From an uncultured Clostridia bacterium (GTDB taxonomy: Bacteria; Bacillota; Clostridia; TANB77; CAG-508): 64,000 nt of DNA. The position numbers and the translations under genes were made by a program. A model generated the notes under the pieces. The model worked only from the letters and a program-made list of their open reading frames with translations, was not told the DNA's origin and did not search any database. The DNA lies in the NCBI GenBank assembly GCA_944387405.1, contig CALXET010000005.1:30823-94822 (forward strand), written 5' to 3'. This document shows positions 41,662-60,135 of the stretch, in pieces; position 1 is the first letter of the stretch; every line of letters starts with the position of its first letter.

Positions 41662-41668
41662 TATTTCT

Positions 41669-41713
41669 TGGTTGCGGGAGTAGGACTCGAACCTACGACC
41701 TTCGGGTTATGAG
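41669..41713 (-). repeat. att site: displaced 3' half of tRNA-fMet
   Basis: 45 nt matching 58490-58534 with 3 substitutions; match ends at anticodon loop CTCATAA. Confidence 0.9.
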
Positions 41714-41913
41714 GGTTGACATAATGTTTTTGTGATGCGTATTGAATTGTATTGTATGCTAGTGTTATCAATACTTAGAAGTTTTTTCATTTAGTGAATA
41801 ATATGGTTGAAAATGTACCCTTTTTGAGAAATTGATCCCCAATTTCTCCCCAATTTTTTTATTAAGATTTTTGGGAGTATTTAGATATTATTTTTTATTT
41901 TGGAGGTTATTTT

Positions 41914-42210
41914 ATGATTAATAATTTTAGAAAAGTTAATGAAGATTTATTAAAAGATTGGCTTGCCTTTAGAGAAGAAACCGAGCTTGCCTTTCTTGAT
42001 GACGAAGATAAGAAACATACAGTTAAGTTTGATGAGATTTCTGAAAAAATTTTAGGTACTATACCTAAACAGAATAGAAAGTTTGTAGAAAAACAACTTG
42101 AATTACTTAATTCTAGTTTTCTAGAGTATATTTGTTACTGGAATGAAAAGTATTATAGGAATGGTTTTTGTGATGGCATTCAGTTAATTATTGGATGTCT
42201 GATTTTATAG
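41914..42210 (+). CDS. Small hypothetical protein (DUF6809-like)
   Basis: C-terminal YYRNGFCDG motif, SD GGAGG. Confidence 0.55.
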   Translation: MINNFRKVNEDLLKDWLAFREETELAFLDDEDKKHTVKFDEISEKILGTIPKQNRKFVEKQLELLNSSFLEYICYWNEKYYRNGFCDGIQLIIGCLIL

Positions 42211-42218
42211 AAAAAGCC

Positions 42219-43361
42219 CTATTGGGCTTTTTCTTTATTTTTATAATAATTAAAAGCTTTTACCAAACAATATAATTCTTTTATATTAGCAATATCACTA
42301 TTAAATGGAGGTATTCTATCCTTAAAATGCTTTAATAATATTTCTTCCATATCTTCATTATTCCAGTACTCATATAGCTTAGTATAATAATAACTTGACA
42401 TATTTGTAAAATATTCTGTATTACAAAAAACCACTTCTTCAATTTTACTTATTTGCTTTTCTTCTTCCGGATTTTGTATTATATCATATAAAATTGAAAC
42501 ATTTTCAATATTTTTTTCTCTATATTTTTCATATTCATTTTGATTATACTTATTTGTTATTTTTGTATTTATCAATATTCTCAAAACATCTATTATGTAT
42601 TTATATCTGGAATTAAGCCTTTTCTTGTCTTCTTTTTCTAAAATATTAAGTTGAATTATAGGATTATGATTTTTTTCTATTTTATTTCTTGCCACTTCTT
42701 TTTTATAATCCTTAATCATAGTTATTATTTCTTTATATAACGAGTCTAAATATACAATATATTTATCTAGATACTTATTTATATCCTCGAATTTAAATCC
42801 AAAACTTTCTTGTAAAAATTCCTTAGACTTCTTTTTACTCCACAGAAAGGTATAGTAATCCCAACCTTTTGTTGTACCGTGTAGTCTATCTAATATTGAA
42901 TTATATGGTGTTGGATATGTAGCTACAATAAATTCTTCATTATCCTTTAACTCTGTTGGATGAGCTCCAAATATAGCTCTTATGTTTTGAAAATAATTCC
43001 AATCATCTTTATTTTTATCACCAAATATATTGTTTTCTCCATAAAAAAGATGAATTCCATCTTTATTTTTCACAATTTTATATATATCATTTATGCCTTT
43101 TACAACAATATCAACTGCAGATATAAACAGGTATACTTCTCCCCAATTATAATCTTTTTTATTTTTCTTCAATAAATTATCACTACATAGATAATCTTCT
43201 ACTACTCTGAACCAGTGCATTACGGAACAAATAATACTCCACTTATCTTCTCCATATCTTTTATCAAGAATTAATAATATATCATCTTGATTTTGTCCAT
43301 TAATAAATTTTTCTAAACTATTTAATTTTTTTATTCTATCTTCATATTTCAATTTATTCAC
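42219..43361 (-). CDS. Hypothetical protein with HEPN-like R-x5-H motif, downstream of the RT
   Basis: YFQNIRAIFGAHP; starts 29 nt after RT stop. Confidence 0.55.
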   Translation of the reverse strand: MNKLKYEDRIKKLNSLEKFINGQNQDDILLILDKRYGEDKWSIICSVMHWFRVVEDYLCSDNLLKKNKKDYNWGEVYLFISAVDIVVKGINDIYKIVKNKDGIHLFYGENNIFGDKNKDDWNYFQNIRAIFGAHPTELKDNEEFIVATYPTPYNSILDRLHGTTKGWDYYTFLWSKKKSKEFLQESFGFKFEDINKYLDKYIVYLDSLYKEIITMIKDYKKEVARNKIEKNHNPIIQLNILEKEDKKRLNSRYKYIIDVLRILINTKITNKYNQNEYEKYREKNIENVSILYDIIQNPEEEKQISKIEEVVFCNTEYFTNMSSYYYTKLYEYWNNEDMEEILLKHFKDRIPPFNSDIANIKELYCLVKAFNYYKNKEKAQ

Positions 43362-43390
43362 CTACTATAATAATTTTACACTTCTATTTA

Positions 43391-44299
43391 TTATTTTTGT
43401 ATTTGCAATATTAATTGATTATATCCTTTTAATTTTAATATTTTTTTCTCCTTTTCTATATGTTTATTATTCTTTAATTTTATAATTCTATATCTTATTT
43501 TATTAGGAAGTACTAATTTATTTCCATCTTTTGATATAATATTGCCTGTTACTCTTTTAAACTCATTGGAATAATACTTTTTTAATTTTTTCTTTTGTAT
43601 GTTATAACCATTTCTTTTTATTATCGAAATAATTTTATTAATAATCTCATTATTTATCATCTTGTTTGAAGAAATAACTACATCATCCACATAAATAGAA
43701 ACTTTACACCCACTAATTTTTGCAACATTTGATATTTCATTAAACATATCAATGTTAGACAAGTAGGACATAATACAGCTTATAGAAGATCCTGTTGGTA
43801 TATGTTTCATTTGATGTATTTTATTATCTTTTAGATAGTCTAAAACATTATTATCTAAATTAGAAATTTTTTCTAAATTAACTGTACATAAATCTGTTAA
43901 AATCTCAGCCACATCACTGCTATTCATTAACTTATTTTTAAAGAACTTATATACTTTTTCTCTACTAATATTAGGAAAAAACTTATTTATATCAAGTGCA
44001 ACCACATATTTACTTTCTAAATGATACAAACCATTATCAATATATGATTTTCCAGGTATTCCTGAAAAAATATTTTCATCATACTTTATATCTTTTAATA
44101 ATATTTGTATTCTTTTTTGAATAGATTTTAATTCTTTCGAATCTATTGGCTCAATAAGTCTCTTTTTTCCTTTATTAGCAATATATGGTTTATATAAATT
44201 ACAAATTTGACTAATATTTTTTTTGCTATTTATTTTTAATAACACTCTTATATCTCTTTTTCTTTTAATTCCATAAAGTTTACAGGTAGTTAAATCCAT
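43391..44299 (-). CDS. Retron-type reverse transcriptase
   Basis: KKRLIEP, SYIDNGLYH (NAxxH-like), LDINKFFPNI, PTGSSIS, YVDD, RVTG; 302 aa with no maturase/endonuclease domain. Confidence 0.88.
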   Translation of the reverse strand: MDLTTCKLYGIKRKRDIRVLLKINSKKNISQICNLYKPYIANKGKKRLIEPIDSKELKSIQKRIQILLKDIKYDENIFSGIPGKSYIDNGLYHLESKYVVALDINKFFPNISREKVYKFFKNKLMNSSDVAEILTDLCTVNLEKISNLDNNVLDYLKDNKIHQMKHIPTGSSISCIMSYLSNIDMFNEISNVAKISGCKVSIYVDDVVISSNKMINNEIINKIISIIKRNGYNIQKKKLKKYYSNEFKRVTGNIISKDGNKLVLPNKIRYRIIKLKNNKHIEKEKKILKLKGYNQLILQIQK

Positions 44300-44304
44300 A
44301 TAAA

Positions 44305-44359
44305 AATTCCCCCTTTTATAAATAAATTATATTTTAATTTACTTATAAAAAGGGAAATT
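44305..44359 (-). promoter_or_regulatory. 24-bp hairpin occluding the RT Shine-Dalgarno
   Basis: Arms 44305-44328 and 44336-44359; all 3 mismatches are G-U wobbles on the minus strand. Confidence 0.7.
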
Positions 44360-44570
44360 AGTTAGTTTTTTTAGAATTAATAATAATAGTTATTATATTA
44401 TTACCAACGATAGCAGTGATCGCAGTTACTATTATTATAGGATTCCACCTTAAGTAAGTTCCAATAATTGACACTACTAAAAATTCTAAAATTATAGGTA
44501 TAACTTCAATTATTTTTTCCAATAACTGAATTACCAATTTTTGTTTCTGCTTTTTAGGTAATATCATCAT
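44358..44570 (-). CDS. ~70-aa two-TM hydrophobic peptide, candidate toxic effector
   Basis: SD AGGAGGTG then ATG 44570; basic N-terminus, two hydrophobic stretches, KK at C-terminus. Confidence 0.7.
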   Translation of the reverse strand: MMILPKKQKQKLVIQLLEKIIEVIPIILEFLVVSIIGTYLRWNPIIIVTAITAIVGNNIITIIINSKKTN

Positions 44571-44572
44571 TT

Positions 44573-44901
44573 CATTCACCTCCTATTGTAAATTAGAACA
44601 TCTATATAGTTTGGTGCGCACTTATTCAAACTATTATAAACGCCCTTCGCTTCTAATTTAGGAATTGTGAATGGTAGTACTATCCGGAACTAACTATTTC
44701 CATGTCCTTCGCATAATATGCAAAGTAATTTTATTCATGACAATATAAACAATAATATATCATGAATATATGAACTTTGAACAGTATGATTGTTCTTTCT
44801 GCATTAGATATACATTTATATATTCCCACGAATAATGCGAACTAAAAGTTCTCGCTATCTTTCGATAACCAATAGAAGGGTATTTCGAACACTTTGGAAC
44901 T
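44573..44901 (-). ncRNA. Structured RT-associated ncRNA/leader (msr-msd-like candidate)
   Basis: At least 7 hairpins incl. a GAAA tetraloop, closed by UUCCA/UGGAA and CCUUC/GAAGG, followed by a 101-nt hairpin. Confidence 0.7.
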
Positions 44902-44907
44902 ATAGTA

Positions 44908-44936
44908 AGTATATTATATTTTTTTAATCTTTTCAA
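44908..44936 (-). promoter_or_regulatory. sigma70-type promoter for the ncRNA-peptide-RT transcript
   Basis: TTGAAA (44936-44931)-N17-TATACT (44913-44908); predicted TSS ~44901. Confidence 0.6.
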
Positions 44937-44975
44937 GCATCCTTTAACTATTTCCTTTACTAACACGTTTATTCT

Positions 44976-45755
44976 CTATTTTTTTAATACAAATACATAT
45001 TCGTGTGCCAATAAATAAAAATCCATATTCTTATTTTTCCAATAACCTGTCATCTTACAATTATGTTGTTCTTTTATAATTATTTCTTTTAATGTGAAAC
45101 CTGTTTGAATAAAAATATTCATGACATAAAAACCTAATGGAATAATATTCTTATTTTTTCTAATATCTCCTATTAAAATTGAACAAATTTTATCTTTTTT
45201 TAGAACCCTAAAACATTCTTTTGAAAATAAACTTATTTGATTTAAAAATTCTTGTAAGTTTAATCTTGATAAATCTTCTTCTATATCTTCACTATATTTT
45301 ATAATATTGGCATATGGTGGATGTGCAAATATAAAATCTATTTTTTCATTTGGTATTATTTTTTGTAAATTGGTTGAATCTGCCCTTAATAATCTTGGTT
45401 CATATATAGTTTGGTATTTAAAGTTTAATCTACTTCTAGCTAATTTTAAAGCATCTATATTTATGTCAATTCCTATTCCTTTTCTATTTAGTAATTTACA
45501 TTCTATCATTGATGTACCACTTCCACAAAAAGGATCTAAGACTATATCTTTTTCTTCCGTATATTTTAATATTAAATTTCTTGGTACTTGTGGTGGGCAA
45601 TTACCTCTATAATCTCCTTTATGTGTTGCCCATTTTCCTCTTTCTTTAAAACTCCATATTGTAGTTCTTTCTAATTTAAATTCTTTTGGATTATATATCA
45701 ATAAACATTCCTCCTTAATTATAAAGAGCAACCTTAATAAAAAAGTTGCCCCCAA
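44976..45755 (-). CDS. Additional N4-C/N6-A DNA methyltransferase
   Basis: VLDPFCGSGT, FAHPPY, WATHKGDYRGN; real start probably TTG ~45702. Confidence 0.8.
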   Translation of the reverse strand: MGATFLLRLLFIIKEECLLIYNPKEFKLERTTIWSFKERGKWATHKGDYRGNCPPQVPRNLILKYTEEKDIVLDPFCGSGTSMIECKLLNRKGIGIDINIDALKLARSRLNFKYQTIYEPRLLRADSTNLQKIIPNEKIDFIFAHPPYANIIKYSEDIEEDLSRLNLQEFLNQISLFSKECFRVLKKDKICSILIGDIRKNKNIIPLGFYVMNIFIQTGFTLKEIIIKEQHNCKMTGYWKNKNMDFYLLAHEYVFVLKK

Positions 45756-45774
45756 AAAACTTTTATAATATCTT

Positions 45775-46710
45775 TTATTTAAAATATTCTTTTATTACTT
45801 CTTCTAACATTCCGTTTTTTGCAAGATAAAAGTTCATAAGATAATTCATATTTCTAAATCCCTTTTGTAACTGATTTTTTGATTTATTATCCCAACATAA
45901 ACCATCTGTTAGTAATACAAATCCCATATTTAACTTATCTAAATCATGTTGCCTATTAATATAACTATCAATTATTTCTTCAGGTTTTGATCCTCCCCTA
46001 AAGAAATAATCCACTTCTATATTTAAAGCTTTATTATCTTTTATTAATATAAAATCTGCTTTTCTATTTGCAATATCTTCCGATACACTAAAGCCATAAT
46101 CTTTCAGTTTTTTAAATTGCTTTTGTGATAACATCGTTACACTATATTTTTCACAAATTTTCTTTATTACTGGTTCACAAGCATCTTCAAATGCTGTTCC
46201 ACCTCTGTTTTTTCTACCATTAGAATCTAACCCTACTAATACTCCAATAACGTAATCGGTTAAACTTTTTTCAACTAGATTTTCACATAAACTTTTTAAA
46301 CCAATTCTTTCAAAGAAATAATAATAATTTTCTATTTCCTTTTTAGAAAGTCCTTGTTTTAATTTCTCTATTTCAAAAGAAAACTTCAAATTTTCATCAT
46401 TCCCTATTTCATCGCCAACAACTGCTAATAAATTTTTTCCATACCATACTTCTGTTCTTTCATTTTTTGAAAGTGCAAATAATAATGGGAAAGTAGCAAT
46501 AACTGTTGGTACTTTTTCTACTAGTTTGTAAAACTTCTCTTTAATATTATCTGCTCTTATCAATACATTCATTGCGTTCAATTCTATCTCAAATTCCTTA
46601 TACGCTTTTGCATTTTTCCAATTAACATAAAAGTCAAATCCTCTATTAGTTTCCAATAAATTATTTACAAATATTTCTGACAACTTATCATAATCCATTT
46701 CTAAGTACAT
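45775..46710 (-). CDS. dpnB: DpnII-family type II restriction endonuclease
   Basis: YVIGVLVGLDSNGRKNRGG, ADFI, IEVDYF..GGSK, LLTDG; follows two MTases. Confidence 0.85.
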   Translation of the reverse strand: MYLEMDYDKLSEIFVNNLLETNRGFDFYVNWKNAKAYKEFEIELNAMNVLIRADNIKEKFYKLVEKVPTVIATFPLLFALSKNERTEVWYGKNLLAVVGDEIGNDENLKFSFEIEKLKQGLSKKEIENYYYFFERIGLKSLCENLVEKSLTDYVIGVLVGLDSNGRKNRGGTAFEDACEPVIKKICEKYSVTMLSQKQFKKLKDYGFSVSEDIANRKADFILIKDNKALNIEVDYFFRGGSKPEEIIDSYINRQHDLDKLNMGFVLLTDGLCWDNKSKNQLQKGFRNMNYLMNFYLAKNGMLEEVIKEYFK

Positions 46711-47486
46711 TATTGTTCCTCCTTCATTTTTTTATATCTTCTTATAGATAGTTCTATATATTTTTTCTCGTTGTCTATCCCTATGTATCTTCTATTTAAT
46801 CCAACTGCTGATATTCCTGTTGTACTACTACCACAAAATGGATCTAAAATCAAATCTTCTTCTTTGGTTGAAGCAAGTATTATTCTATCTAATATTTCTA
46901 ACGGTTTTTGTGTGGGATGTTTTCCACATTTCTTTTCGGATGGTTTTGTCAACGAAGTTGTCCAAACATCTTTCATTTGTTTATTATTGTTAATTTCTTT
47001 CATTAAAGTATAATTGAATGTATATTTCACATTTTTTAAATCTTTCCTTGCCCATAATATAGTTTCTGTTGAATGTGTAAATGTCTTGCACGCCAAATTG
47101 GGTGGTGGATTAGTCTTTTGCCATGTTATATTATTTATTATTTTGAATCCCTCTTCTTCGAGTGCCATACCAATTGAATAAATATTATGTAATGTACCAC
47201 TTATCCATATAGTTCCGTTATCTTTTAAAATTCTATAACATTCTTTTATCCATTTTTTATTAAACTTATGTTTTTCTTTAATTGATAATGTTTTATCCCA
47301 TTCGCCTTTATTAACACTAACCATTTTTCCACCGCTACATGTAATACCATTTCCAGAAAGGAAATATGGCGGATCTGCAAAAATCATATCTATACTCTTA
47401 TCTTCAAATTTTTTAATTGCCTTAAATATATCATTATAAATCAATTTGAAGCTATCGGATTCAAAATAGTATTTCCCTCTATACAT
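46710..47486 (-). CDS. dpnA: DpnA-like adenine methyltransferase
   Basis: FADPPYFLS, SVNKGEWD, KHPTQKP, LDPFCGSSTTG. Confidence 0.85.
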   Translation of the reverse strand: MYRGKYYFESDSFKLIYNDIFKAIKKFEDKSIDMIFADPPYFLSGNGITCSGGKMVSVNKGEWDKTLSIKEKHKFNKKWIKECYRILKDNGTIWISGTLHNIYSIGMALEEEGFKIINNITWQKTNPPPNLACKTFTHSTETILWARKDLKNVKYTFNYTLMKEINNNKQMKDVWTTSLTKPSEKKCGKHPTQKPLEILDRIILASTKEEDLILDPFCGSSTTGISAVGLNRRYIGIDNEKKYIELSIRRYKKMKEEQ

Positions 47487-48412
47487 TTTATTTCTCCATT
47501 ATAAGAATTCTGTGTTTTATAATTTGTTATTAGAAGTTCGGATATTTCACCTCTTCCTTTTGAATTAGCATTTATCATTCTTTTAGCATAAACTTTATTA
47601 ATATTAAATCCCCCATAGATGTTTTCAAAAAAGAAATCATCTTTATTTGTATTCTTAGGATTTGAATTACTAAGCATAACTTTTACATTATTCTTGTTCA
47701 ATTCTCTATAGTATGAAGCTAATTCTTTTTGAGCCTCATCATCAAAATCTTCTTTAGTATATGACGTAAATCCTGATGTAACATTTAAAGGTCTATATGG
47801 TGGATCAAAATAAACAAAAGTATTTTTCTTTATATATTTTTCACTTGTTCTATAATCTCCATATTGAAAATTTACATTTTTTATAAGATTAGACAGTCCT
47901 CTTAAGTTTTCCTCATCACAAATAGTTGGATTTTTATAATTCCCCATAGGAACATTAAAATCTCCTTTTTTATTTACTCTATATAATCCGTTAAAACATG
48001 TTCTATTTAAAAATATAAATTCTACTGCCTTTTGTACTGACATTTCATCTTTAGCTAATTTGTGTACATTATAATTCTTTCTTATTTTATAGAAGTATTC
48101 CTTTCTATTCTCTTTTTCCATACACAAATATTCTCTTTCTAATAGCTTTAAATTAGCTATCAATTCATCAACATGATTTTTTATTACGTTATAAGAATTT
48201 ATTAGTTCTAAATTTATATCAAAAGCATACACTTCTTTAACTTTATAACTTTGCAGTATATCTATTAATACTGCTCCTCCACCAACAAAAGGCTCTATAT
48301 AACAATCTATTTTGCCATTTTGTAATTCTAATGGATAAAACTTTTCTAATTGATTTAATAGGCTACCTTTGCCTCCTGCCCATTTTACAAATGGCTTTAT
48401 TTTATTTTGCAT
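47441..48412 (-). CDS. dpnM: Dam/DpnM adenine methyltransferase (GATC)
   Basis: KWAGGK, EPFVGGGA, FNGLYRVN, YFDPPY. Confidence 0.9.
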   Translation of the reverse strand: MQNKIKPFVKWAGGKGSLLNQLEKFYPLELQNGKIDCYIEPFVGGGAVLIDILQSYKVKEVYAFDINLELINSYNVIKNHVDELIANLKLLEREYLCMEKENRKEYFYKIRKNYNVHKLAKDEMSVQKAVEFIFLNRTCFNGLYRVNKKGDFNVPMGNYKNPTICDEENLRGLSNLIKNVNFQYGDYRTSEKYIKKNTFVYFDPPYRPLNVTSGFTSYTKEDFDDEAQKELASYYRELNKNNVKVMLSNSNPKNTNKDDFFFENIYGGFNINKVYAKRMINANSKGRGEISELLITNYKTQNSYNGEIKCIEGNTILNPIASN

Positions 48413-48476
48413 TTTTTCACCTCTTATGTTTTGTATTTTATCATATATAATAAGTTTTTACAATAAAATTAAACTC

Positions 48477-51400
48477 TTAATTATCACTTTCATCGTAGTC
48501 ATCCCAAATTTCTTCAATATTCTCAATTAATAAATCGTAGAACTTGTTATTTTTCCATTTTTTCTCATCTTCTTTTTCTTTTTTGTATACTATACATTTC
48601 TTACATTCTGCATTTTGCTGTCTAGAATAATATTTATGACTTTTATAATGTTTATATTTCTCAATACTACCATCAGAATTTATTTGAATTTGAAGTGCGG
48701 AATCTTCACAATAACCAGTTTTAGGATGGTATTTTTCTGTAAAACAAAAATATTTGTAATTATGTTTTTTTATTAATATATCGTAATATTTTTTCTTTAT
48801 GTATAAAGTACCAGAGCATCCTTTTCTATACCACATTCCCTCATTATTATTAACTAATATAATTTTTTCTTCATTAACACCATTCCATGATGAAGAAAAT
48901 TTGTTGTAATGCAAATCAAATTCTTTTATGATTATTGATGGTGGCAAATTAAAATCTGTTGTTACATATATATTATTTAAATCACTTGCACTATATAAGC
49001 TAGTTGTCATTTTATAATTTTCATTTTTATAATCTTCAAAATTTCCTCTATATTTATTTGTTTCTATTGTATATTTTCTATCTTCATTACTAATACCACA
49101 TAAATTGTAGTTTTCATCTATTGCTAGATTTATTATATATGTATCAATCCAACTATTACCGTACTCATCATCTGATTTTTCATCTAGCCTTATACTCCCA
49201 TACAACATATAATATTTTTCATTTTTATACGTTATAGGTTCTATAATTTTTTTTATATTATTTAAACTTAATTCACTATCTTTCACCCATTTAATATTCT
49301 TTTTTTCTGGAACAATTATTTTTTTTAAAGTTTTATTATCTAAATTTTCTATATCTTGATTAAAAACAGCTACCGGATAATATATTTCAGCTTTTTCATC
49401 ATATCTATCATACAAGTTAAATTGATATCCCTTATAATCTCCATATATTTCAAACTCATTTGTAAAGTAATTACAAGTCATAGAGCCATTAATTTTCGAA
49501 AATGACAATTCTAAAGCCTTATATATAATTCCTTTTTCCTCTTCTTCGTACACATATATATTATCTAAATCTTTGATTTTTATATTATATTTTTTCATAT
49601 ATGTCTTAAAAATTTTTTGCCATGCTAAATAAATTACTCTATCCTCTATCTCTTCTTCATTTATTGAAAATTTTTTATCTATAAAATTCTCTTTAAAATA
49701 TGTTGAATTGCATTCATTATTATTCAAACATTTAAAGTGGTTTTGAATAAAACTATTTACTTTTATAATGGCTTTTTTTTCTTCTTTCAGAAATTTAGTT
49801 TGAAATGTTATAGAAGAATTATAAGTTTCAAATCCAAAGAAATCATAGTCATATTTATATGTAAAAAATATTCTATGTAAAAATTTTAAAATATTATTGT
49901 CTATCCTTTTGTCTGTATCTAGAATATAATTTGTCTTTTCCATTTTTTCATAATTTTCTTTTCCATATAAATAATTACTGATAAAGTATAAATTCTTAAT
50001 ATTACAAAAATCTATGACATTTATTCTATTAAAAAATTTTTTTATTATTTTATTATTCTTTTTTAAAGAACTTAATACTTGTACTACCATTTCTTGTATA
50101 TATTCATCTTTAACTTCACTATATATTGATATCAATTTATTAATATACTCTGAATGAATATTAGTTATTTCAAATATAAGTTTTTTTGCTAAAGTTCTAT
50201 TCAATTTATTGACTAATGATGAGCACCAAACTGCATACCAAAACTTTTCTTCTATGTATTTTTTATCATAATTAAATTTACTAACAGTTTGAACATATAC
50301 TTTTAATTTGTGTCTAATTTTTTTAACATCATATCCAACTATATTCAATTGCTTTTTATCGTAAATTTTTTTTAATTTATCATTTAAAAAATTTGTACAA
50401 TTAAAAGGATTGCTTTCATTTCCTCCAGCTCGAATTAGTAATTGCTCTAAGGGAATATTTACCTTAAGTAATTTTTGAATTTTCGTCATATTGTTAGTAC
50501 TTAAATTTAATTCATTAAAAATCTCTATATCCAGATAATTATTTAAAGCAGTCTCTTTTATTATTTTTATAGCTATTTCTATATTATCTTCATATTTTTC
50601 AAATAGCATTAAAATAACTTGATCATGTATACTATAAAATACTTTTACAATTTTACTTATATATTCTTTAGTTTCAGATATATTTAATCCATCTAAATTA
50701 TCAAATAAAAATCTTGCAATTAAATAATCTGTTAAAGTTTCATTTATAAAATAAATAAAAGTATCATTATCATAATCATAGGTACCAACAAAATTATTTG
50801 TTTTCATTTTATTCATATATGCACTAAAGTCAGTTATATTTAATTTATTCAACTCATCTACTTTTATTTCTTTACTTTTATTTTTAAACATCTCACCAAT
50901 TATTTTCTTTGTAATATTCCAATCATTTCTAGTTAAAACATTCTTAATAAAATGCTCATAAATATATGTACCTTTTGTAATTGGTTTTAATCCTTTATTT
51001 ATTAATTGATTTTCACTTATTGACTTTATTATTAGTTTTAAATGCAATGGATTATTATCATATAATAATCTATCATATATTGATAAGTCCAAATTATATT
51101 TTTCTGATATTTTTTCTAATGCATTATCCGGATCTACACCTGTAAAAATTTCTTCAATATCAACTAATTTTTTTAGTCTTTGTATTTCTTTTTCAGCCAT
51201 TGAGAAATCTCTTAATGAAATTATGACTCTTAAATTTGAATTGTTCCTGTTATCATTTATAAATTTATATATTTTTTCTCTTAAACCTTCGTTAAATTCG
51301 TTAATTGCATCAATTATAAAATAAAATCTATCATTTTTTATATTTTTAACTATATCTTTAAAGATATCATTTTCTATATTTTCACAATATTTTCCATATA

Positions 51401-51854
51401 AACATAAATAATTAAATTTCTTACTTACTTTTTCTGAAAATTCAAATAAAAATTGACTCTTTCCTATTCCTCCAGGTCCACTTATCATAATAATTTTATT
51501 AAACTTCATTCCATTAATAACATCATAATATGAAGTATAATATTTTTCTTTATATTTTTCTAACTTCTCATATTCTTTCTCTAATTCATAAAATTCTTTT
51601 TGTTCTATTTTCATACTATAATTATATTTCTTTATAATTTCATTAATTTTTTTTATAATTTCATTTTGTTCTAACTCTTCACCAGATAATTCTTTACCAC
51701 TATATCTATATAGCTCCCTTTCTTTAGGTACTTCACCTAATATATATGAAAATAATCTTTTATCTTCCCATTCATAATGTTCTTTTATCAGCTCTTTACT
51801 CATAGCATTTTTTTGAATTTTATTTAATTCTTTTATTTTCAATTTATATAACAT
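48477..51854 (-). CDS. Large STAND/NACHT-like NTPase, possible Avs-like sensor
   Basis: Walker A GPGGIGKS, Walker B FIIDAINE, ISLR, NPLHL, long helical C-terminus. Confidence 0.65.
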   Translation of the reverse strand: MLYKLKIKELNKIQKNAMSKELIKEHYEWEDKRLFSYILGEVPKERELYRYSGKELSGEELEQNEIIKKINEIIKKYNYSMKIEQKEFYELEKEYEKLEKYKEKYYTSYYDVINGMKFNKIIMISGPGGIGKSQFLFEFSEKVSKKFNYLCLYGKYCENIENDIFKDIVKNIKNDRFYFIIDAINEFNEGLREKIYKFINDNRNNSNLRVIISLRDFSMAEKEIQRLKKLVDIEEIFTGVDPDNALEKISEKYNLDLSIYDRLLYDNNPLHLKLIIKSISENQLINKGLKPITKGTYIYEHFIKNVLTRNDWNITKKIIGEMFKNKSKEIKVDELNKLNITDFSAYMNKMKTNNFVGTYDYDNDTFIYFINETLTDYLIARFLFDNLDGLNISETKEYISKIVKVFYSIHDQVILMLFEKYEDNIEIAIKIIKETALNNYLDIEIFNELNLSTNNMTKIQKLLKVNIPLEQLLIRAGGNESNPFNCTNFLNDKLKKIYDKKQLNIVGYDVKKIRHKLKVYVQTVSKFNYDKKYIEEKFWYAVWCSSLVNKLNRTLAKKLIFEITNIHSEYINKLISIYSEVKDEYIQEMVVQVLSSLKKNNKIIKKFFNRINVIDFCNIKNLYFISNYLYGKENYEKMEKTNYILDTDKRIDNNILKFLHRIFFTYKYDYDFFGFETYNSSITFQTKFLKEEKKAIIKVNSFIQNHFKCLNNNECNSTYFKENFIDKKFSINEEEIEDRVIYLAWQKIFKTYMKKYNIKIKDLDNIYVYEEEEKGIIYKALELSFSKINGSMTCNYFTNEFEIYGDYKGYQFNLYDRYDEKAEIYYPVAVFNQDIENLDNKTLKKIIVPEKKNIKWVKDSELSLNNIKKIIEPITYKNEKYYMLYGSIRLDEKSDDEYGNSWIDTYIINLAIDENYNLCGISNEDRKYTIETNKYRGNFEDYKNENYKMTTSLYSASDLNNIYVTTDFNLPPSIIIKEFDLHYNKFSSSWNGVNEEKIILVNNNEGMWYRKGCSGTLYIKKKYYDILIKKHNYKYFCFTEKYHPKTGYCEDSALQIQINSDGSIEKYKHYKSHKYYSRQQNAECKKCIVYKKEKEDEKKWKNNKFYDLLIENIEEIWDDYDESDN

Positions 51855-52125
51855 CTCCTATAGGTTTTTATAGAATATATATCATATTTCTTTAAATTTC
51901 TCAATTTTTCAATACGAATTACTATTATATTGTCTTTTTAAATAATTCTCTTCTATAAAACTTATGTAGCTTAGCTACTTGTTCAACCTTTTGTATGTAC
52001 AAAAGGGAATCTTGCTTAAAGATTCTACATTTAAAACTATCTATAAATCTCACGATGAGAATTTTTTTATAAAAAGAAATTCCCCAATGGGAACTTCTTT
52101 TTATATTACCTAATATATTTTCTTA

Positions 52126-52278
52126 CTAATAATTATCTGCAATATATTCTTCTATTTTTCTTAATAAATCATTATATGAATTAAATTCATAATGACTTTT
52201 TTCTACAATGTCTAATTTAAATGTTGTAGTAAATGTAGTTTTGTTGTTTATATTTTCATTATCTTTATATTCCTTCAT
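52126..52278 (-). CDS. 50-aa hypothetical ORF absent from the ORF track (MKEYKDNEN...IADNY)
   Basis: SD GAGGT, ATG 52278, TAG 52126-52128; directly after the replisome organiser. Confidence 0.5.
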   Translation of the reverse strand: MKEYKDNENINNKTTFTTTFKLDIVEKSHYEFNSYNDLLRKIEEYIADNY

Positions 52279-52285
52279 AGTTACC

Positions 52286-52843
52286 TCACTTTCTTAAATT
52301 ATCATAAAGATTATCAAAAAATTCTGATGGATATTTTCTTTGATCATAATCCAAATAACCTTTCTTCTTTGAAAAATTTTTTTTATTATGCTCTAATTTA
52401 TTATTTTCTTTTTTATTCTCCTCTATATCGTTACATAACGTTACATTAACGTTATTCTCATTTTTTTGATTTTCTCTAAACCTTTTTTGTCTTTCTCTAT
52501 TTTGTTGTTTTACAATCTCATATTTATCAGCACTTTGGTACTTATACCAATTTTTAATTCGATATATATTGTCCTCACAAATTATCATTTCAAAATGGAT
52601 TAACTTGTTCAATATATTTTGAATTTTTTTGTTTGATTTGTGTGTAATTGTTGCAAGATTTTCTACTGTTATTGGTGTATTTTCTGACATCATAATTTTT
52701 CCATCTTGCATAGATGTACCAGCAAGTGTCAGTAATTGAATCCATACTCTAAAGAACGTGTCCCCATCACGTTCTTTGAGTAATAGTTGAATTTTAGGAT
52801 TTGCAAATATATTTGTAAACACTTTAATCCATTGCATAAACAA
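52286..52843 (-). CDS. Phage replisome-organiser N-terminal domain protein
   Basis: WIKV..NIF.NPKI, WIQLL.LAG, IKNWYKYQ, RERQKRFR. Confidence 0.8.
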   Translation of the reverse strand: MFMQWIKVFTNIFANPKIQLLLKERDGDTFFRVWIQLLTLAGTSMQDGKIMMSENTPITVENLATITHKSNKKIQNILNKLIHFEMIICEDNIYRIKNWYKYQSADKYEIVKQQNRERQKRFRENQKNENNVNVTLCNDIEENKKENNKLEHNKKNFSKKKGYLDYDQRKYPSEFFDNLYDNLRK

Positions 52844-52853
52844 TACTCCTTTC

Positions 52854-53072
52854 CTATTTGTTTATAGAATTTTCTTCTTTTTCTTTTAAATATCCATCTA
52901 AAGCTTGTACTCTAAATAATACTCTTCCACCTACTCTTGCACATGGTATCTGTTTTCTTCTTACTAGTTGATTCACAAGCCAATATGATACGCCTAAATA
53001 TTCTGCTGTTTCTTTCATTGTTAGCGTTGTTCTTTCAACCTTTGGTAGTTCTTTCATAAAATCACCTCCCAC
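52854..53072 (-). CDS. Excisionase-family HTH protein
   Basis: TMKETAEYLGVS, IPCARVGGRVLF. Confidence 0.85.
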   Translation of the reverse strand: MGGDFMKELPKVERTTLTMKETAEYLGVSYWLVNQLVRRKQIPCARVGGRVLFRVQALDGYLKEKEENSINK

Positions 53073-53241
53073 TTTTCAACAATATTTTTAATAATTTCAG
53101 CACTTATCAGCACTTTTGTTGATTTTTAGTGCTTTGCCTTGTAAAATATAATTAGCTAATTACTGATTATTATTTTAGTTGTTTAGTTTTGAATTAAAAA
53201 CCTGACAGCTAATAATTAGAAAATGTTTTTGAGCTGTAGGG

Positions 53242-54294
53242 GTGATTATTATGATAAGTGATTTAAAAATTGCTTTTGATTTTACAAACTCTAAAGAATA
53301 TGTATCAAAATTTACAACCGAAGAATTTACCGAAATAAATAAAATACCTGAAAATTTGAGAAATAAAAAATTTTATATTTTTAAATCTGAACAACCATAC
53401 TGTCAAGATCTTGGAACATATTTGCTTGACTTCATGAATACAGATTTTGATGATATTGAAGATTTTAATTTACTACTCGTTAAATATCTTTTTGTTCCTT
53501 GCTTAATGCTATATAATCCTAATATATTAAATGATTGTTTATATGGTAAAAATTTAATATTTAAAGACAATTCTGTAGAAAACAATAATTTAATTTTATC
53601 TGAGGAAGAAATTAAATATTATGCTGAAGTATTTTATGAAGAATATTATTGGGATTTATCAACTACACAACTTAAATTTGAAAATATTTTTGAGAATAAA
53701 TATTATAAAAATTTTTTAGATGTGACTAATATTTTAGATGATAATTATGATTTCTTAGAAGAATTATCTAAAAAAGAAAAAGATTTTTCTGCAATAAAAG
53801 ATATTGCTTCCGAATTTAATAATATTGGAATTAGCTATGATGTAAAAAATTTTTATGATAATAATGATTTATATACTTACTATTATTCAAAAAATCCTAC
53901 TGATATTGCCTATGTATCTGCAAGAGAACTTTTTAATAACAAAAAAAGTTTTAGGCTAGTACGTTGTAAGAACTGTAACTATTATTTTATACCTAAAACT
54001 TCTCATAAAACTTTATATTGTGATGATATTTATGAAAATAATAAAACATGTAAGGAATATGCTAATTCAATATCTTCAACCAAAACTTATGAATCTGATG
54101 AGCTTTGCAAAAAATATAGAAATAGATATAAGAATTTGCACAAACAAGCATCTTTAAGTAGCAATCCTAAAGTACTTATTCTTTACGAAAAATACAAATT
54201 AAAAGGTGCTAAAATGCTTGAAAAATATCAACGTAGTAAAATTACAGCTAAAGAATTTGATAATTGGATTGATAGTATGAAAATAAGGAAGTAA
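53242..54294 (+). CDS. DUF6076-like protein with C-terminal Cys cluster
   Basis: RCKNCNYYFIP..YCD..TCK; divergent from excisionase. Confidence 0.65.
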   Translation: MIIMISDLKIAFDFTNSKEYVSKFTTEEFTEINKIPENLRNKKFYIFKSEQPYCQDLGTYLLDFMNTDFDDIEDFNLLLVKYLFVPCLMLYNPNILNDCLYGKNLIFKDNSVENNNLILSEEEIKYYAEVFYEEYYWDLSTTQLKFENIFENKYYKNFLDVTNILDDNYDFLEELSKKEKDFSAIKDIASEFNNIGISYDVKNFYDNNDLYTYYYSKNPTDIAYVSARELFNNKKSFRLVRCKNCNYYFIPKTSHKTLYCDDIYENNKTCKEYANSISSTKTYESDELCKKYRNRYKNLHKQASLSSNPKVLILYEKYKLKGAKMLEKYQRSKITAKEFDNWIDSMKIRK

Positions 54295-54302
54295 AAACTT
54301 CC

Positions 54303-56922
54303 TTATTTTAAATATTTATTTACAATGTATCTTATATTATAATTATTTGATTTACTTAATTTTGCAATTATGTCTTTAAATTTTTCTTTATTTCTTTTAT
54401 TCAAGCAATAAATCAAATTAACAATAGCATAATCCTTTTCAAAATTGTTGTCATTTAAAAAATTATTTAGTATATGGATGGTATCATCAAAATGTTCTGT
54501 ACCAATAAATACATGTGATAATTTGATTGTTTCATCAACTAATTCTATATCTTCTGATTGTATAGACAAACAATAAATACTATATATTATATTTAAATCA
54601 TTATTACTAATCTTTTTTTTTATTTCTAAAAATTATACTTATACAATCTATAATTTCATATAAGGCATTTTGATTACAAATACCTTGTACCATAAAATAA
54701 TTTAATATATTATTTAGTGTTTTTTCTTTTAAAGCATATCTTGCCATTTCTATATTAATATTTATATCTACTTTTGATTTGCTATCATAAAAATCCTTGC
54801 TTGCTGATTCTATTTTAACATTTTTTATAATATTTTTTATTTCTTCTAATATATTGTTATCTTTTTCAATTAATGCTATATAAGTAAGACATTTGAGCAT
54901 ATTTATTTTTTCATTTACATATTGATTCTTAGACATTAATATCATTCTAGACAATGGTAATATGTCATTTAGAACAATTGCTCTTATCTCTTCATTATAT
55001 TTTCTTTTTGTAAAGTTTTCCCATCCTATTAAATAATTCCTAGCATTAAAAAAATGAATAGCAGGATTTTTTTCTCTCTTTTCAGCTTCACTTTTTATTT
55101 GAGTAACAATGTATTTCAATGTCTTTGTGCTATTCTTTTTTTCAATATTATACCAAAAATTTTCAAAAGAATTTTCTTTTAATAAAATATTGTTAAAGTT
55201 ATTTGTTTTAGTATATTTTTTTAATTCAATCATTGCTTGAAAGGCTTCTATATCATTAATATCTTTTACTTTATTTACTATATTAATAAAAAGTTTTTTT
55301 TCTTTTTCATCTAATTCCAAAAACTTTATCTTATTTAATATACTACTAAAATTTCTAAAAAAACCTGAATAATTTTTGTTTAAGTATTTTAATATTATAT
55401 TAAATAAATTTTCTTTTTTTACGAATCGTTCTGTATTATTTGGTATTGACTCCCAAGCTCTATGCACTTCATCAAAATCACATGTCTTTCCTATATTTAT
55501 AATTTTTAAAATGTGTTTTTCAAATTTTAAATATGTTTTGTCATCAAGATATCTACCATAAACATCAAATATGAAAATATAATAATTATTAATATCCATC
55601 GGTAAAATAGCTTTCTCTAGTGACAGAATTTCATTAATAAACTCATTACTATTAATAAAATTTTCTGTTAACTTTATTCGATTATACATTTTTTTAAATT
55701 CTTTGAATTTTCCTGATAATATCATTTGCTTTAAACAATTCTTATAAAAAATTGTATCCTCATAACAATTTGCATATATACTTAAAACTTCTGCTAGTAA
55801 GTTTCTAACTAATCTAAAATGTGTAATTGAACCAAATAAAATACTTATATATGCAAGTTCTTGAATAGAATTTAATATATATTCTAATCCCACTCCATAT
55901 ATTTGTGTATATTTGGATTTATTTTGATAATTAAATATATTTTTAAGTACATTTTCATACAAATTACTACGCACTCTGTCTATATTAGGATAAACTATCT
56001 TACGACGATTCTTTTTGATTTCCATTTGAAAAACATTATCTATAGAATATTTTCTTTCTATTCTTTCCAATTGAATTGTAATATTTCTTCCATCGACTAA
56101 TATATCATCCCTTAACCAATTTTCTATATTATCACTTTTCATATTTAATAGCTCTAAATATATTTTATGTGCTTCCTTTATATTTCCTTCAAAATACTTA
56201 TGCAAAGCATCCCATCTTCTTGCTAAAATATCATCATCGTTTATATTATATATTTTTTTTAATTCTTCATAAAATCCATCTAAATTCGCTAATGGGAATT
56301 TTTTTCTTCCCATCAACCATTCCAATAGCTCTTTACCAAAATTTGAAATAATATCATCAAATATAAAATCTTTTTTGAAAAAATTAGTGAAATCCTTGCA
56401 ATAAATATAATCATTCAAACCTTCAAATTTTCTCAGATATTCTTCATACTGAATACTACTCCATTGAGAATTCTTATGGATATTTAATACTTCTATTACA
56501 TCTTTTTCTTTTTCTTCAACTATTCTCTCTTTTTTTACATCTGTTATCTCATTTATTTGTTTTATTAGTCCTATTTCTGCTCTAGATTCAGCTTTGCTTT
56601 TCCAATCTTTTAATACTTCCACTGTATATTTTTTTTCATCACTATCTATAATTTTTGAACATGTTTGGCAAAGCCATATTCCATTTTCTATACTTGAACG
56701 TTGTTCTGGTGTCATATTTATATCATATCTTTTTCCTCCTGGTGCCGCCGCACATATATGAGAAGCTACTCCTGTATTTATAAATTTCTCACTTGCAGAA
56801 GATGGACCTAATGTTCCTCTACTACATTCGGGATTTGAGCATAAATAATTAACTCTTTTAGCTAATACTTCTTTTATCTTATTTGAAAAATCATCTCTAT
56901 TATTATTTTTTCCCATACTCAA
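54303..56922 (-). pseudogene. HNH-domain protein split by a frameshift in an A9 tract (ORFs 54607-56922 and 54303-54569)
   Basis: CSNPEC, SHICAAAPGGKRY, NGIWLCQTCSKIID; A9 to A8 at 54613-54621 fuses both ORFs into 872 aa. Confidence 0.7.
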
Positions 56923-57076
56923 ACCTCCTCTTGCCGAATTATATCATAAATTCCCCTACACCACAAACTTTTTTCTCTATAACTACCTGTCGGGTTTTGT
57001 TTTCTTTTTACATGATGCTACAATAAAATCATAGTAATTTACCCAATTACTAAATAAAACGAAAGGAGGCAAATAA

Positions 57077-58276
57077 GTGACAGGTAGTATTGAAAAACGT
57101 GGAAAAAATAGCTATAGGTTAGTAGTATTTAAAGGTTATGACTTAGACGGAAAATCAGTTAGACATCAAAAAACTGTACATTGTAAAAATAAATCCGAAG
57201 CTCAAATAGAGCTAGCAAAATTTGTAACGCAAATAGAAAATGGATTTATTATAGAAGGGTCTACTCCAACATTTAAAGAATTTGTAGACATATGGGAACG
57301 TGATTATGCTTTAAAAGAACTTGCTCCATCAACTTATTGTAGATATAAAAGAATGTTAGAAACGAGAATTATACCTTATTTTGGACATTTAAAACTAGAT
57401 AAAATTAGACCTATTGATATTATGCATTTCTATAATTTACTTGAAGAAGATACACAACTTCAAAGAAAGAAAAATAATCATGGAGAAAAGACTAGAAAAC
57501 CCTTATCAAAAAAAACTATATTAGAACATCATAGATTAATACATGCAATGTTACACAAAGCAGTATATTGGCAAATGATTGTAACTAATCCAGCTGAACG
57601 TGTAGAACCTCCAAAAGCACCTAAACCACAAAGACCTTGTTATGATGAAGATCAAACTAGAATTTTAGTGGATAATTTAGAAAAACTAACAGGAAAAGAT
57701 ATTAAATATAAAGTTGCTATTTTACTAGATATTTTTATAGGTGCAAGGCTTGGAGAACTTGCTGGACTTGAATGGTCAGATATAGATTTTAAAAATGGAA
57801 TTATATGTATTAATAAATCTAGCCAATATTTATCAGAAAAAGGTGTATTCACCAAAAGTCCTAAAAACGAGAGTTCTATACGTGACGTTGCTATCCCTGA
57901 TTTTATTGTTTCTTTACTTAAAGAATATAAATTATGGTACAATGAACAAAAATCAATTGTAGGCGATTTCTGGCACGAATCTGATAGATTATTTGTACAA
58001 GATGACGGAAAACCTATTCATCCATCTACAATTAGTAAATGGTTTGAAAAATTTATTAAACAAATTGGTTTACCAGTTATAAATTTTCATGGTTTGCGAC
58101 ACACAAATGCTACTCTATTAATAGGTCAGCAAGTTGATGTAGCCACTGTATCAGCAAGACTAGGTCATGCTCAAATTACTACAACTTATAATTTCTATGT
58201 ACATCCATTAAAGTCACATGATAAAAAAGCTGGTAATGTACTAGAAAATTTATTAGTATCTAATAATGTACATTAA
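57077..58276 (+). CDS. Tyrosine recombinase/integrase
   Basis: GARLGE, KSPK, HGLRHT, RLGHA, FYVH; N-terminal arm-binding domain. Confidence 0.95.
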   Translation: MTGSIEKRGKNSYRLVVFKGYDLDGKSVRHQKTVHCKNKSEAQIELAKFVTQIENGFIIEGSTPTFKEFVDIWERDYALKELAPSTYCRYKRMLETRIIPYFGHLKLDKIRPIDIMHFYNLLEEDTQLQRKKNNHGEKTRKPLSKKTILEHHRLIHAMLHKAVYWQMIVTNPAERVEPPKAPKPQRPCYDEDQTRILVDNLEKLTGKDIKYKVAILLDIFIGARLGELAGLEWSDIDFKNGIICINKSSQYLSEKGVFTKSPKNESSIRDVAIPDFIVSLLKEYKLWYNEQKSIVGDFWHESDRLFVQDDGKPIHPSTISKWFEKFIKQIGLPVINFHGLRHTNATLLIGQQVDVATVSARLGHAQITTTYNFYVHPLKSHDKKAGNVLENLLVSNNVH

Positions 58277-58489
58277 CAATTCAATATTATCAAAACTTTT
58301 TTGTCACTCTCATATTTATTAGCTTTGAATTATCTTGTAATTTATAGCTTTAAAAAGTATTAATTTGGAGAGTTCATCCCCAATTTCTCCCCAATTTGAC
58401 ATAAACTAGTGGTTTTTACCCATTATTGCAACCAATTTTCAATCAATAAAAAATCACTAAAACCGTTACAGTTCTAGTGATATATTCTT

Positions 58490-58565
<76 letters not shown>

Positions 58566-58837
58566 ATGTCTTTTTATATTATATGATAGAATAGTAGTTG
58601 TGTCAATATATTATATGTAAAAATTATAAAAAACATGAAAAAAATACTAAAATTATTAAATAAAATAAAAAAATGTATATACAAAAAAATTTTTATATGT
58701 TATCATGAAAAAAATAAAAAGTATAATATTTATAAATTTTTTTTGAAAAATATGTACAAATGTTGAAAAATGTGGTATTATATAATTGTAGGAAAAAATT
58801 TGTGAATATCGTTATTATAAAAGGAGGAAAAAACGAA

Positions 58838-59203
58838 ATGAAAATGAGTAGAAAAACAGTTAGAATAATAACAGCCGTTATGATGTTTTTAATGATTTTA
58901 TCAGTTGCTTCTACAGTTTTAGGTTCTTCTTGGACACCACAAGCAAATGAAGGTGCCGCTGGTGCAGATAGTATTAAAAATATTATCAATGCTGTATTAG
59001 GATGGGTACAAATCATTGGTATAGGTGTAGCTGTTATTATGTTAATAGTTTTAGCTATTAAATATATTTCTGCAGCACCTGGAGACAAAGCAGAAATCAA
59101 AAAACATGCTGTTGTTTATGTAGTAGGTGCAGTTATATTATTTGCTGCAACTGGTATATTACAAATTATCAGAACATTTGCTACACAAACAATTACAGGC
59201 TAA
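58838..59203 (+). CDS. TrbC/VirB2-like pilin
   Basis: Signal-like N-terminus, two TMs around IKY..APGDKAEIKK; ATG 58838 after AGGAGG. Confidence 0.75.
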   Translation: MKMSRKTVRIITAVMMFLMILSVASTVLGSSWTPQANEGAAGADSIKNIINAVLGWVQIIGIGVAVIMLIVLAIKYISAAPGDKAEIKKHAVVYVVGAVILFAATGILQIIRTFATQTITG

Positions 59204-59281
59204 TAGCAAATACAGAATATACATAAAATTTCGGAAAGATTATCAGAAATGATAATCTTTCTTTGTAAAAGGTGGAAGCAT

Positions 59282-59620: not shown

Positions 59621-59629
59621 GAGGAAAAT

Positions 59630-59974: not shown

Positions 59975-60135
59975 TTAAAGTAAAATTTAATATATAAGAG
60001 AGAGAACAATTTAGATTATGTCTATTTGTATCTCTCTTTTTCTTTACAAAAGTATTACAAATTATTAAAAAAAGTTGAATAAGAAAATTAAATAGAATAT
60101 AATAAAATTAACTATTTTAAAATGGGGGAAAATGT

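Follow-up and report, generated by a model that had tools for sequence, protein, structure and literature searches.

The window analysed here, that is, the whole 64,000-nt stretch of DNA from an uncultured Clostridia bacterium, carries on its minus strand a retron reverse transcriptase (RT) gene (43391..44299, 302 aa), which is preceded by the ORF of a small protein (SP) and by a structured RNA of which that ORF forms a part. The cassette sits inside a 16.9-kb integrative element in tRNA-Met (41662..58565) with a 52-nt duplicated end at 41662-41713 and an integrase gene at 57077-58276. Within this element it is adjoined by DpnII-type restriction-modification genes and an NTPase gene, and by its predicted gene content the setting is a defence island. 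The restriction-modification genes (44976-48412) comprise a DpnII-type endonuclease with three methyltransferase genes. Two large cargo genes encode a 1125-aa NTPase with weak matches to Avs2 and AAA_14 (48477-51854) and a 771-aa protein with a Cys-rich N-terminal end and no NCBIfam match (54607-56922); both are probable defence genes. At 58760-60540, four similar membrane ORFs of 114-147 aa stand in a row (repeat families D1 and D2), which we take to be pilin-like, and the genes after them resemble a conjugation cluster.

Two further ORFs near the cassette were considered and set aside. A 380-aa ORF lies 3' of the RT gene (42219-43361) and is touched by low-depth RNA contigs; it was rejected as an effector, having no family in PADLOC, Pfam or NCBIfam and occurring only in near-identical loci. 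A 68-aa ORF that overlies the RNA (44760-44966) likewise belongs to no family and is lost in non-identical homologs.

Homologous loci were drawn from genomes, metagenomes, viral contigs and plasmids. Relatives of the retron are patchy: in the order, 8 of 401 genomes carry one, as do 5 of 399 in the class (with the genome studied here counted). Six cassettes without a helix-turn-helix (HTH) gene lie on viral contigs (L046-L051). The element tests described below cover the 34 HTH-less loci with enough upstream DNA, and counts over these loci are not independent because the homologs fall into four kin groups (A, B1, B2 and C).

Architecture of the hybrid RNA

The preliminary description had placed at the 5' end of the RT transcript a multibranch domain of 204 nt (44698..44901). 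Structured RNA does stand at the 5' end of the RT operon and goes beyond a classical msr, as was stated there, but the 204-nt domain is msr plus msd rather than an msr alone and makes up no more than the opening arm of a hybrid RNA. Conserved structure continues past 44698 down to 44352, and RNA-library contigs together with conserved elements indicate an RNA of about 550 nt (44352..44901, minus strand), which consists of an msr-msd arm, a riboregulator, the SP ORF and the inverted repeat IR2. One plan recurs across the alignments of the four groups, with the elements in the order promoter, leader, R', UG-G, SL1, SL2, variable arm, R1 and IR1, followed by the anti-SD stem enclosing R2, the SD, the SP ORF and IR2 over the SP stop. 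IR1 (44687..44701, minus strand) is the 5' arm of a long-range helix around the SP ORF, and IR2 (44353..44367, minus strand) spans the SP stop codon; cognate IR1/IR2 pairing exceeds the 90th percentile of other-group partners in 31 of the 34 loci. The RT gene is thus adjoined by an ncRNA with msr stem-loops, an msd arm and inverted repeats, as expected of a retron. The gene order ncRNA-SP-RT, together with helices and repeats that change in concert, is a real conserved element, and a larger one than had been described.

The predicted sigma-70-type promoter (-35 TTGAAA, 17-nt spacer, -10 TATACT; 44936-44908, minus strand) would start transcription at about 44901. Such a prediction is weak by itself because promoter-like sites of this kind number 47 in 4.5 kb compared with 38 in shuffles; a promoter at the matching place is the top-ranked candidate in 32 of the 34 loci. 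That a transcript exists, as had been supposed, was borne out by gut-microbe RNA libraries. A query spanning RNA and RT (43300-45000) retrieved 14 RNA runs holding 0.26-0.33 of its words, and each of the seven that were compared (from six studies) contains one contig running from 44880-44890 to 44337-44443, into or through the SP ORF; the contigs cover ncRNA and SP, not the RT gene. In one run (X14), the contig ends at 44352, which is the IR2 end. The upstream methylase was covered in none of the seven runs, and downstream there are two low-depth pieces over the RT end and the next gene plus two 21-base chance fits; a further run, for which the kind is not recorded, covers all of the queried region. 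The gaps over RT and methylase were not counted as proof of silence, and the contigs show neither strand, ends nor level, nor do they prove a single transcript. Five of the seven stop at 44885, next to G44886, a weak hint that would fit a branched G as well as ordinary 5'-end loss in library making. An Rfam scan found tRNAs only and returned no family for this RNA.

All of the stems listed in the preliminary description are present in the minus-strand sequence where it had placed them, and the 204-nt domain folds better than most shuffled controls (MFE -47.6 kcal/mol, z -3.41, with 1 of 200 shuffles as good), but such values are common here: z was -3 or lower in 9 of 60 random 204-nt segments of the window (30 shuffles each), and the opposite strand of 44698..44901 reaches -3.79. 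The z-score was therefore dropped as proof of a structured RNA. In the 204-nt fold, the outer closing helix UUCCA/UGGAA (P 0.81) and the hairpins GAACA/UGUUC (P 0.93) and GCAU/AUGC (P 0.91) held up, but the second closing helix CCUUC/GAAGG (P 0.09) and the stems GCAUUA/UAAUGC (0.23) and CAAAGU/ACUUUG (0.11) did not. An RNAalifold alignment of six close homologs assigns the GCAUUA, GAACA and long UAUUCAUGA stems to a variable region without consensus pairing. Compensatory changes there support a somewhat different set of helices, namely SL1, SL2 and the msd-base helix UAUUCGUG/CAUGAAUA. SL1 (44854..44869, minus strand; P 0.97) shows two-sided changes in three of its six pairs and has at least 4 bp in 34/34 loci, and SL2 (44839..44851, minus strand; P 0.42 in the 204-nt fold) shows them in two of four consensus pairs. 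The variable msd arm (44732..44834, minus strand), closed by UAUUCGUG (44834-27) and CAUGAAUA (44739-32), is the predicted template for reverse transcription by analogy to the Vpa2 and Sen3 retrons discussed below.

The 5' leader strand (44887..44899, minus strand) can pair with GGACAUGGAA (44707-44698), which comprises the outer closing helix and an inner extension. In the 204-nt fold, the outer and inner parts have P 0.81 and 0.53, respectively, and the outer part drops to 0.04 in the 550-nt fold; the inner extension is not kept in two homologs (L006 and L010). The CCUUC/GAAGG helix is displaced by the local hairpin CUUUGCAUA/UAUGCGAAG (P 0.76), whose 7-bp core is invariant in 6/6 close homologs. 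A 10-bp pairing of 44879-70 with the SD was also considered and rejected, since it has P 0.39 in the 362-nt fold and 0.00-0.02 in longer folds, and its extension is absent in homologs.

Repeats, riboregulator and small protein

The hybrid RNA contains a direct repeat, of which the first copy R1 (GCGAAGG, 44712-06) is held in the local R''/R1 hairpin (44706..44725, minus strand; invariant in 6/6) and the second copy R2 (GCGAAGG, 44644..44650, minus strand) follows 62 nt after R1, inside the riboregulator. A third element, R' (CCCUUC, 44875..44880, minus strand), is complementary to both, and from group to group it varies together with them. In 32 of 34 HTH-less loci, compared with 16 of 1700 shuffles, two direct copies of 7 nt or more stand 59-79 nt apart. 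Its sequence differs by group (GCGAAGG, AUAUGGGGCA, GAGGGGC and UGGGGAGU/GGGAAGUC), and R' changes along with it. Pairing exceeds the 90th percentile of other-group partners in 20 of 34 loci for the local R''/R1 hairpin and in 15 of 34 for R' with either copy; the hairpin is weak in group B2 (-3.3). The R'/R1/R2 trio, as read by eye, is also present in eight canonical loci with an HTH gene, mostly with R1 in a hairpin loop. As a DNA copy, the R''/R1 region would fold less well than as RNA (-2.0 and -8.0 kcal/mol, respectively) with a U.G pair turned into a mismatch, so that the anti-repeat would be left free.

No branching G was named in the preliminary description, and two candidates can now be put forward. 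G44870 (minus strand) is the unpaired G of an invariant UG-G directly before SL1. UG-G was found in 34/34 loci, a count that is partly by construction because the anchor was sought by pattern, although R' and SL1 flank it independently. G44870 is unpaired with P 0.86-0.92 in three of four folds and with 0.52 in the 362-nt fold. The rival candidate, G44886 (UUC-G-AA, minus strand), follows the 5' helix, and a GA at its distance is present in 26 of 34 loci (in one of eight in group B1). Neither G is preceded by TTA. The R' core pairs with R1 or R2 over 5-8 bp, longer with internal loops; for retrons in general, an a1/a2 repeat of more than 8 bp and a priming G near the 5' end have been described in the available text of Khan et al. 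(PMC10849725). We would give priming from G44870 close to an even chance and regard priming from G44886 as only slightly less likely.

Downstream of IR1, the riboregulator (44573..44673, minus strand) hides the SD AGGAGG (44584-79) by means of CAUUCAC/GUGAAUG, UCC/GGA and an inner stem. The anti-SD stem exceeds the 90th percentile of other-group partners in 28 of the 34 loci; it does not vary within group A, and between groups it changes in a coordinated way. Opening the ribosome-binding site (RBS) of SP costs 16.3 kcal/mol in the full RNA, compared with 8.3-8.7 without the 5' strand and with 4.8 and 6.4 at two neighbouring genes. Deletion of the strand 5' of R2 is the sole modelled change that opens the RBS (from 16.3 to 8.3); in the nested-pair model, blocking R2 gives 17.6 and blocking the whole msd plus R1 gives 16.3, the value of the untouched RNA. 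The idea that DNA on R2 would suffice to open the RBS was thus discarded, and simple hybridisation would not be enough to release the SD. In group B2 (7.6 vs 7.2, n=9) and in an Enterococcus faecalis plasmid locus (L079), the RBS is no better hidden than in shuffles, and in HTH loci it is not clearly better hidden (11.4 vs 9.8, n=8). As these results are mixed, the notion that the RBS is more strongly hidden in HTH-less loci was dropped.

The SP ORF (44358..44570, minus strand) begins with an ATG at 44570, 8 nt after the SD, and encodes 70 aa with a basic N-terminal end and two long hydrophobic helices, H6-39 and H44-69 (pLDDT 70; maximum KD19 2.32). By analogy to Vpa2, it is likely a membrane-damaging toxin. 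A hydrophobic ORF of 54-99 aa stands directly before the RT gene across the homologs, with changing flanking genes. The SP has no family match in PADLOC, Pfam or NCBIfam (the best Atlas value, 0.77, is at lead level only), and no sequence similarity was detected between SPs from different groups (probability 0.1% for group A against one group C SP); its likeness to Type VI SPs is one of place and character, with no sequence link to the known SP clusters. In group C (L046, L049, L050 and L053), N/I/V-rich beta-type repeats, which may resemble amyloid signalling motifs, precede a very hydrophobic helix (KD19 2.5-3.4), a make-up unlike that of groups A and B.

A strong terminator-like hairpin (44307..44357, minus strand; P 0.99) overlaps IR2 and holds the RBS of the RT gene, whose opening costs 24.8 kcal/mol. 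The hairpin is found in groups A (where the stem is conserved) and B2 and is absent in group C, and group B1 has a terminator-like hairpin that leaves the SD outside. Translation of SP could unwind the hairpin over the RT site, which would amount to translational coupling.

The reverse transcriptase clade and the HTH gene

The RT contains YVDD (203-206), NGLYH (89-93, a variant) and VTG (250-252); we take the NAxxH-like motif for region X and VTG for region Y. Its best PADLOC family is RT_VI (210 bits, E 7.5e-63; next family 1.5e-29), and a fold search with its model (pLDDT 91.5) was topped by retron RTs, above DRT2. An insertion of about 23 aa lies at about residues 141-164. The corresponding region (residues 137-166) spans 27-30 residues in 33/33 complete RTs of the HTH-less clade (with the truncated L045 left out) compared with 5-7 in 10/10 HTH-bearing RTs, 6 in 3/3 other retrons and 12 in the E. 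faecalis plasmid RT. The long form is carried by 54 of the 134 full-length matches found among the best 150 representatives at 50% identity. Taking the insertion as a marker, the HTH-free branch would be widespread, with at least 54 clusters at 50% identity.

A quick tree places 45 Type VI-like RTs (35 lacking and 10 having an HTH gene) together against three other retrons, with an SH-aLRT of 99. The tree was reduced from 56 to 48 rows by leaving out 11 partial or far loci and near-duplicates, and Types IV and V are absent from it. HTH-bearing RTs form one branch (SH-aLRT 97), and HTH-less RTs form two branches and one long row with an unresolved base; because of this base and the absence of Types IV and V, the tree does not separate gain of the HTH gene from its loss. 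A second HTH-less form is seen in the E. faecalis plasmid locus L079 (10 near-identical records), which has a 93-aa hydrophobic ORF overlapping the RT gene, an 8-nt repeat at a spacing of 92 nt, a 9-bp leader complement and an intermediate RT insertion.

No HTH gene lies directly before the RT gene in the window or in 35 Type VI-like loci, and in 10 others the canonical HTH gene occupies that place. The HTH_VI model scores 97-118 bits over positions 1-91 in 3/3 cognate HTHs scanned and 97 and 113.5 bits beside the RT gene in two control genomes; in 9/9 HTH-less genomes searched there was no match at cognate level (at most 58 bits). An exact palindrome, TTCGC-N5-GCGAA, lies a few bases before the predicted -35 in 8/8 canonical SP-HTH-RT loci with enough upstream DNA (L044, L056, L065, L076, L077, L078, L080 and L082; 798-934 nt before the RT gene), whose hosts are Bacillota, Proteobacteria and a cyanobacterium. 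It was found upstream of the promoter in 0/35 HTH-less loci and 0/3 other retrons, with one match inside the riboregulator of L046. The palindrome resembles an operator to which the Type VI HTH would bind, suggesting control of the promoter; our literature search found no paper on an operator of a Type VI retron.

Proposed function, alternatives and known systems

We consider it probable, largely by analogy to characterised relatives, that the cassette is a Type VI-like anti-phage retron that works without an HTH protein and belongs to a large Bacillota lineage with a hybrid RNA, a predicted toxin (SP) and an RT. At rest, the SP message would be made and little translated, with R1 held in the local hairpin and the RT ribosome site buried, and these two features would stand in for the missing HTH brake. 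The RT would prime from a leader G (G44870 or G44886) and copy the msd arm into ssDNA. A phage signal would let this ssDNA build up; in tested relatives, such signals are recombination proteins or loss of RecBCD activity. The DNA, together with RNase H cutting, would then redistribute the R'/R1/R2 pairings and free the SD, which is the weakest step, and the 70-aa helical hairpin would damage the membrane, so that the infected cell stops growing. The steps of phage signal, SD release and membrane damage are modelled on Vpa2.

An unlikely alternative assigns the two repeat copies to two priming registers. Here, R'.R2 would serve as the a1/a2 helix, and an RT starting from G44870 would begin in the riboregulator, copy the anti-SD strand and let RNase H destroy the repressor; priming on R'.R1 would yield a harmless msDNA about 60 nt shorter. 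This would agree with the folding result that removing the strand 5' of R2, and nothing else that was modelled, opens the RBS, with the R1-R2 spacing kept within 59-79 nt, and with the two ssDNA sizes (112 and 145 nt) given for Sen3 in the available text of Garcia-Rodriguez et al. (bioRxiv 10.64898/2026.04.27.721009). It would also agree with the leader in group A, where the CCUUC strand pairs better with R2, 62 nt further on, than with R1 in 6/6 loci (own strain and close group; -12.0 vs -8.1 kcal/mol, other-group control -9.1/-9.2), and R1 is engaged in a hairpin of -7.9. The preference does not hold generally: pairing is better with R1 in 17 of the 34 loci and with R2 in 12, so that a rule by which R' always favours R2 fails (an earlier automatic count gave R1 14, R2 9 and 18 ties, with a promoter and repeat pick that was unreliable for several loci). 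Moreover, R'.R2 has P 0.00 in nested folds and requires a pseudoknot, and the msDNA of Vpa2 (63 and 86 nt) is confined to the first arm and suffices when supplied in trans, according to the accessible part of Zhang et al. (bioRxiv 10.1101/2025.10.22.683967). Which helix primes decides between this alternative and the preferred reading; G44886 would place the complement of the repeat at the msDNA 5' end, as described for Vpa2.

Control after translation is more doubtful still. In this case, msDNA would be made constantly, an RT-RNA-DNA complex in which the RT insertion takes the part of the HTH would keep SP inactive, and SP would be freed once msDNA or AddAB/RecBCD activity is lost. Sen3 is controlled after translation, and Vpa2 without its HTH makes msDNA and translates SP (as far as the available preprint texts go), so an HTH-less system might be constitutive; the insertion in every complete RT of the clade and the weak RBS hiding in B2 point the same way. 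Against this stand the anti-SD stem, with its invariance in group A and its in-step changes across groups, and the retention of the repeat pair that is tied to translational control in the accessible account of Vpa2.

Less probable again is that an XRE protein of the host or element supplies the HTH function in trans, in which case the system would be a usual Type VI retron whose HTH gene has moved elsewhere. XRE genes do lie just upstream of the ncRNA in L013, L014, L032, L033 and L034, and the genome studied here (98% complete) has six weak HTH_VI matches. However, the two upstream XRE genes tested score 32 bits over model positions 3-61, a generic match compared with 97-118 over 1-91 in cognate HTHs; the best match in the own genome reaches 56 bits and lies 41 kb away, and the model at this threshold also matches in 13 of 14 control genomes. 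The putative operator is missing as well. Finally, it is very improbable that the retron has decayed, or that the structure is just a stable 5' UTR, as in a type I toxin-like leader with no relation to the RT. The folding z is ordinary for the window and broken copies exist (L062 and L063 with stops, L045 truncated), but YxDD is intact in 38/38 aligned RTs, RNA, SP and RT remain linked amid changing neighbours at RT identities as low as about 35%, and the msr-like SL1 and the invariant G are retained.

A bolder extension, which we regard as unlikely, would be a widespread HTH-free branch in which the RNA alone sets the trigger, the leader priming on either repeat to give idle msDNA or destruction of the repressor strand, and SP translation opening the RT site in a feed-forward manner. 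If true, two genes would suffice as a minimal immune switch, and the repeats seen in Type VI would be accounted for. In the available accounts, the HTH is indispensable in both tested Type VI retrons, and a system of an HTH-free RNA, a 70-aa protein and an RT removes that variable. How msDNA frees the toxin RBS is stated as open in the accessible print, and the HTH-free form makes this question directly testable. The third repeat copy R', the two candidate branch Gs and the RT insertion tracking the absence of the HTH are leads for such work. Furthermore, the hybrid-RNA design is extended to gut Bacillota, their mobile elements and viral contigs, and the comparison with HTH loci exposed the candidate operator.

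Two other kinds of defence system resemble the cassette in part. Type IV retrons (Ec48/Eco6, as covered in the available text of Mestre et al., PMC7736814) share a clade 3 RT, a two-helix membrane effector and the lack of an HTH, but their effector lies downstream of or overlaps the RT gene, whereas the hydrophobic ORF described here lies upstream, inside the RNA; the RT_IV model is not among the 25 best PADLOC matches, and the downstream genes vary. A structured RNA upstream of the RT gene and a place in defence islands are likewise features of DRT2 and further defence RTs that have long ncRNAs, but the Drt2 model gives 23.8 bits against a cut-off of 390.

The HTH cluster defines Type VI in the available text of Mestre et al. 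(PMC7736814). About 78% of 158 Type VI entries have an HTH, and the accessible part of the Sen3 preprint (10.64898/2026.04.27.721009) gives no description of the others. One HTH-less RT reaches 247 bits with the PADLOC RT_VI model, whose source set therefore probably included RTs of this kind. HTH-less Type VI RTs probably lie within the published 22% without an HTH cluster. Our search for an HTH-less Type VI system or riboregulator gave only the two preprints and unrelated papers; supplements and subscription papers may list such loci. The known kind is thus the Type VI retron hybrid RNA, of which the HTH-free form is undescribed in the literature searched.

The accessible text on Sen3 (Type VI, cl2075; Garcia-Rodriguez et al., bioRxiv 10.64898/2026.04.27.721009) describes an extended transcript of ncRNA and SP with an RBS predicted to be sequestered, IR1 terminating the long arm, IR2 following the SP stop and compensatory changes, as found here. 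Unlike the present system, Sen3 is from Proteobacteria and its HTH, an indispensable antitoxin, cannot be deleted; its ssDNA is constitutive and unchanged on infection. SP is also made constitutively, and translational control is therefore not universal in Type VI. The closest parallel is Vpa2, known to us from its description in the accessible part of Zhang et al. (bioRxiv 10.1101/2025.10.22.683967). In that retron, reverse transcription is kept down by the HTH, and removal of the HTH proves toxic and leaves the RT derepressed; translation of SP depends on msDNA, and a role of the 7-nt repeat is proposed only. Both systems have an msr-msd arm, RBS-hiding stem-loops, an SP ORF and a 3' inverted repeat, direct repeats of 7 nt with one copy at the msd 3' end and one in the riboregulator, an RT of the RT_VI family and a small hydrophobic SP. 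In contrast to Vpa2, the cassette described here has no HTH, an RNA of about 550 instead of 470 nt, the RT insertion of about 23 aa and a Clostridia host; R1 lies in a stem instead of a loop, and R' is a third, complementary copy that the accessible description of Vpa2 does not mention. Its SP is longer and more hydrophobic than the SPs of the HTH loci compared. Taken together, the cassette has an RT of the Type VI group, an SP, an msr-msd-SP unit closed by IR1 and IR2, and the repeats and RBS stem (weak in B2), and it has no Cro/C1-type HTH gene ahead of the RT gene or overlapping it. As it appears to work in a Type VI-like manner with one defining feature missing, it is filed as a variant of that type.
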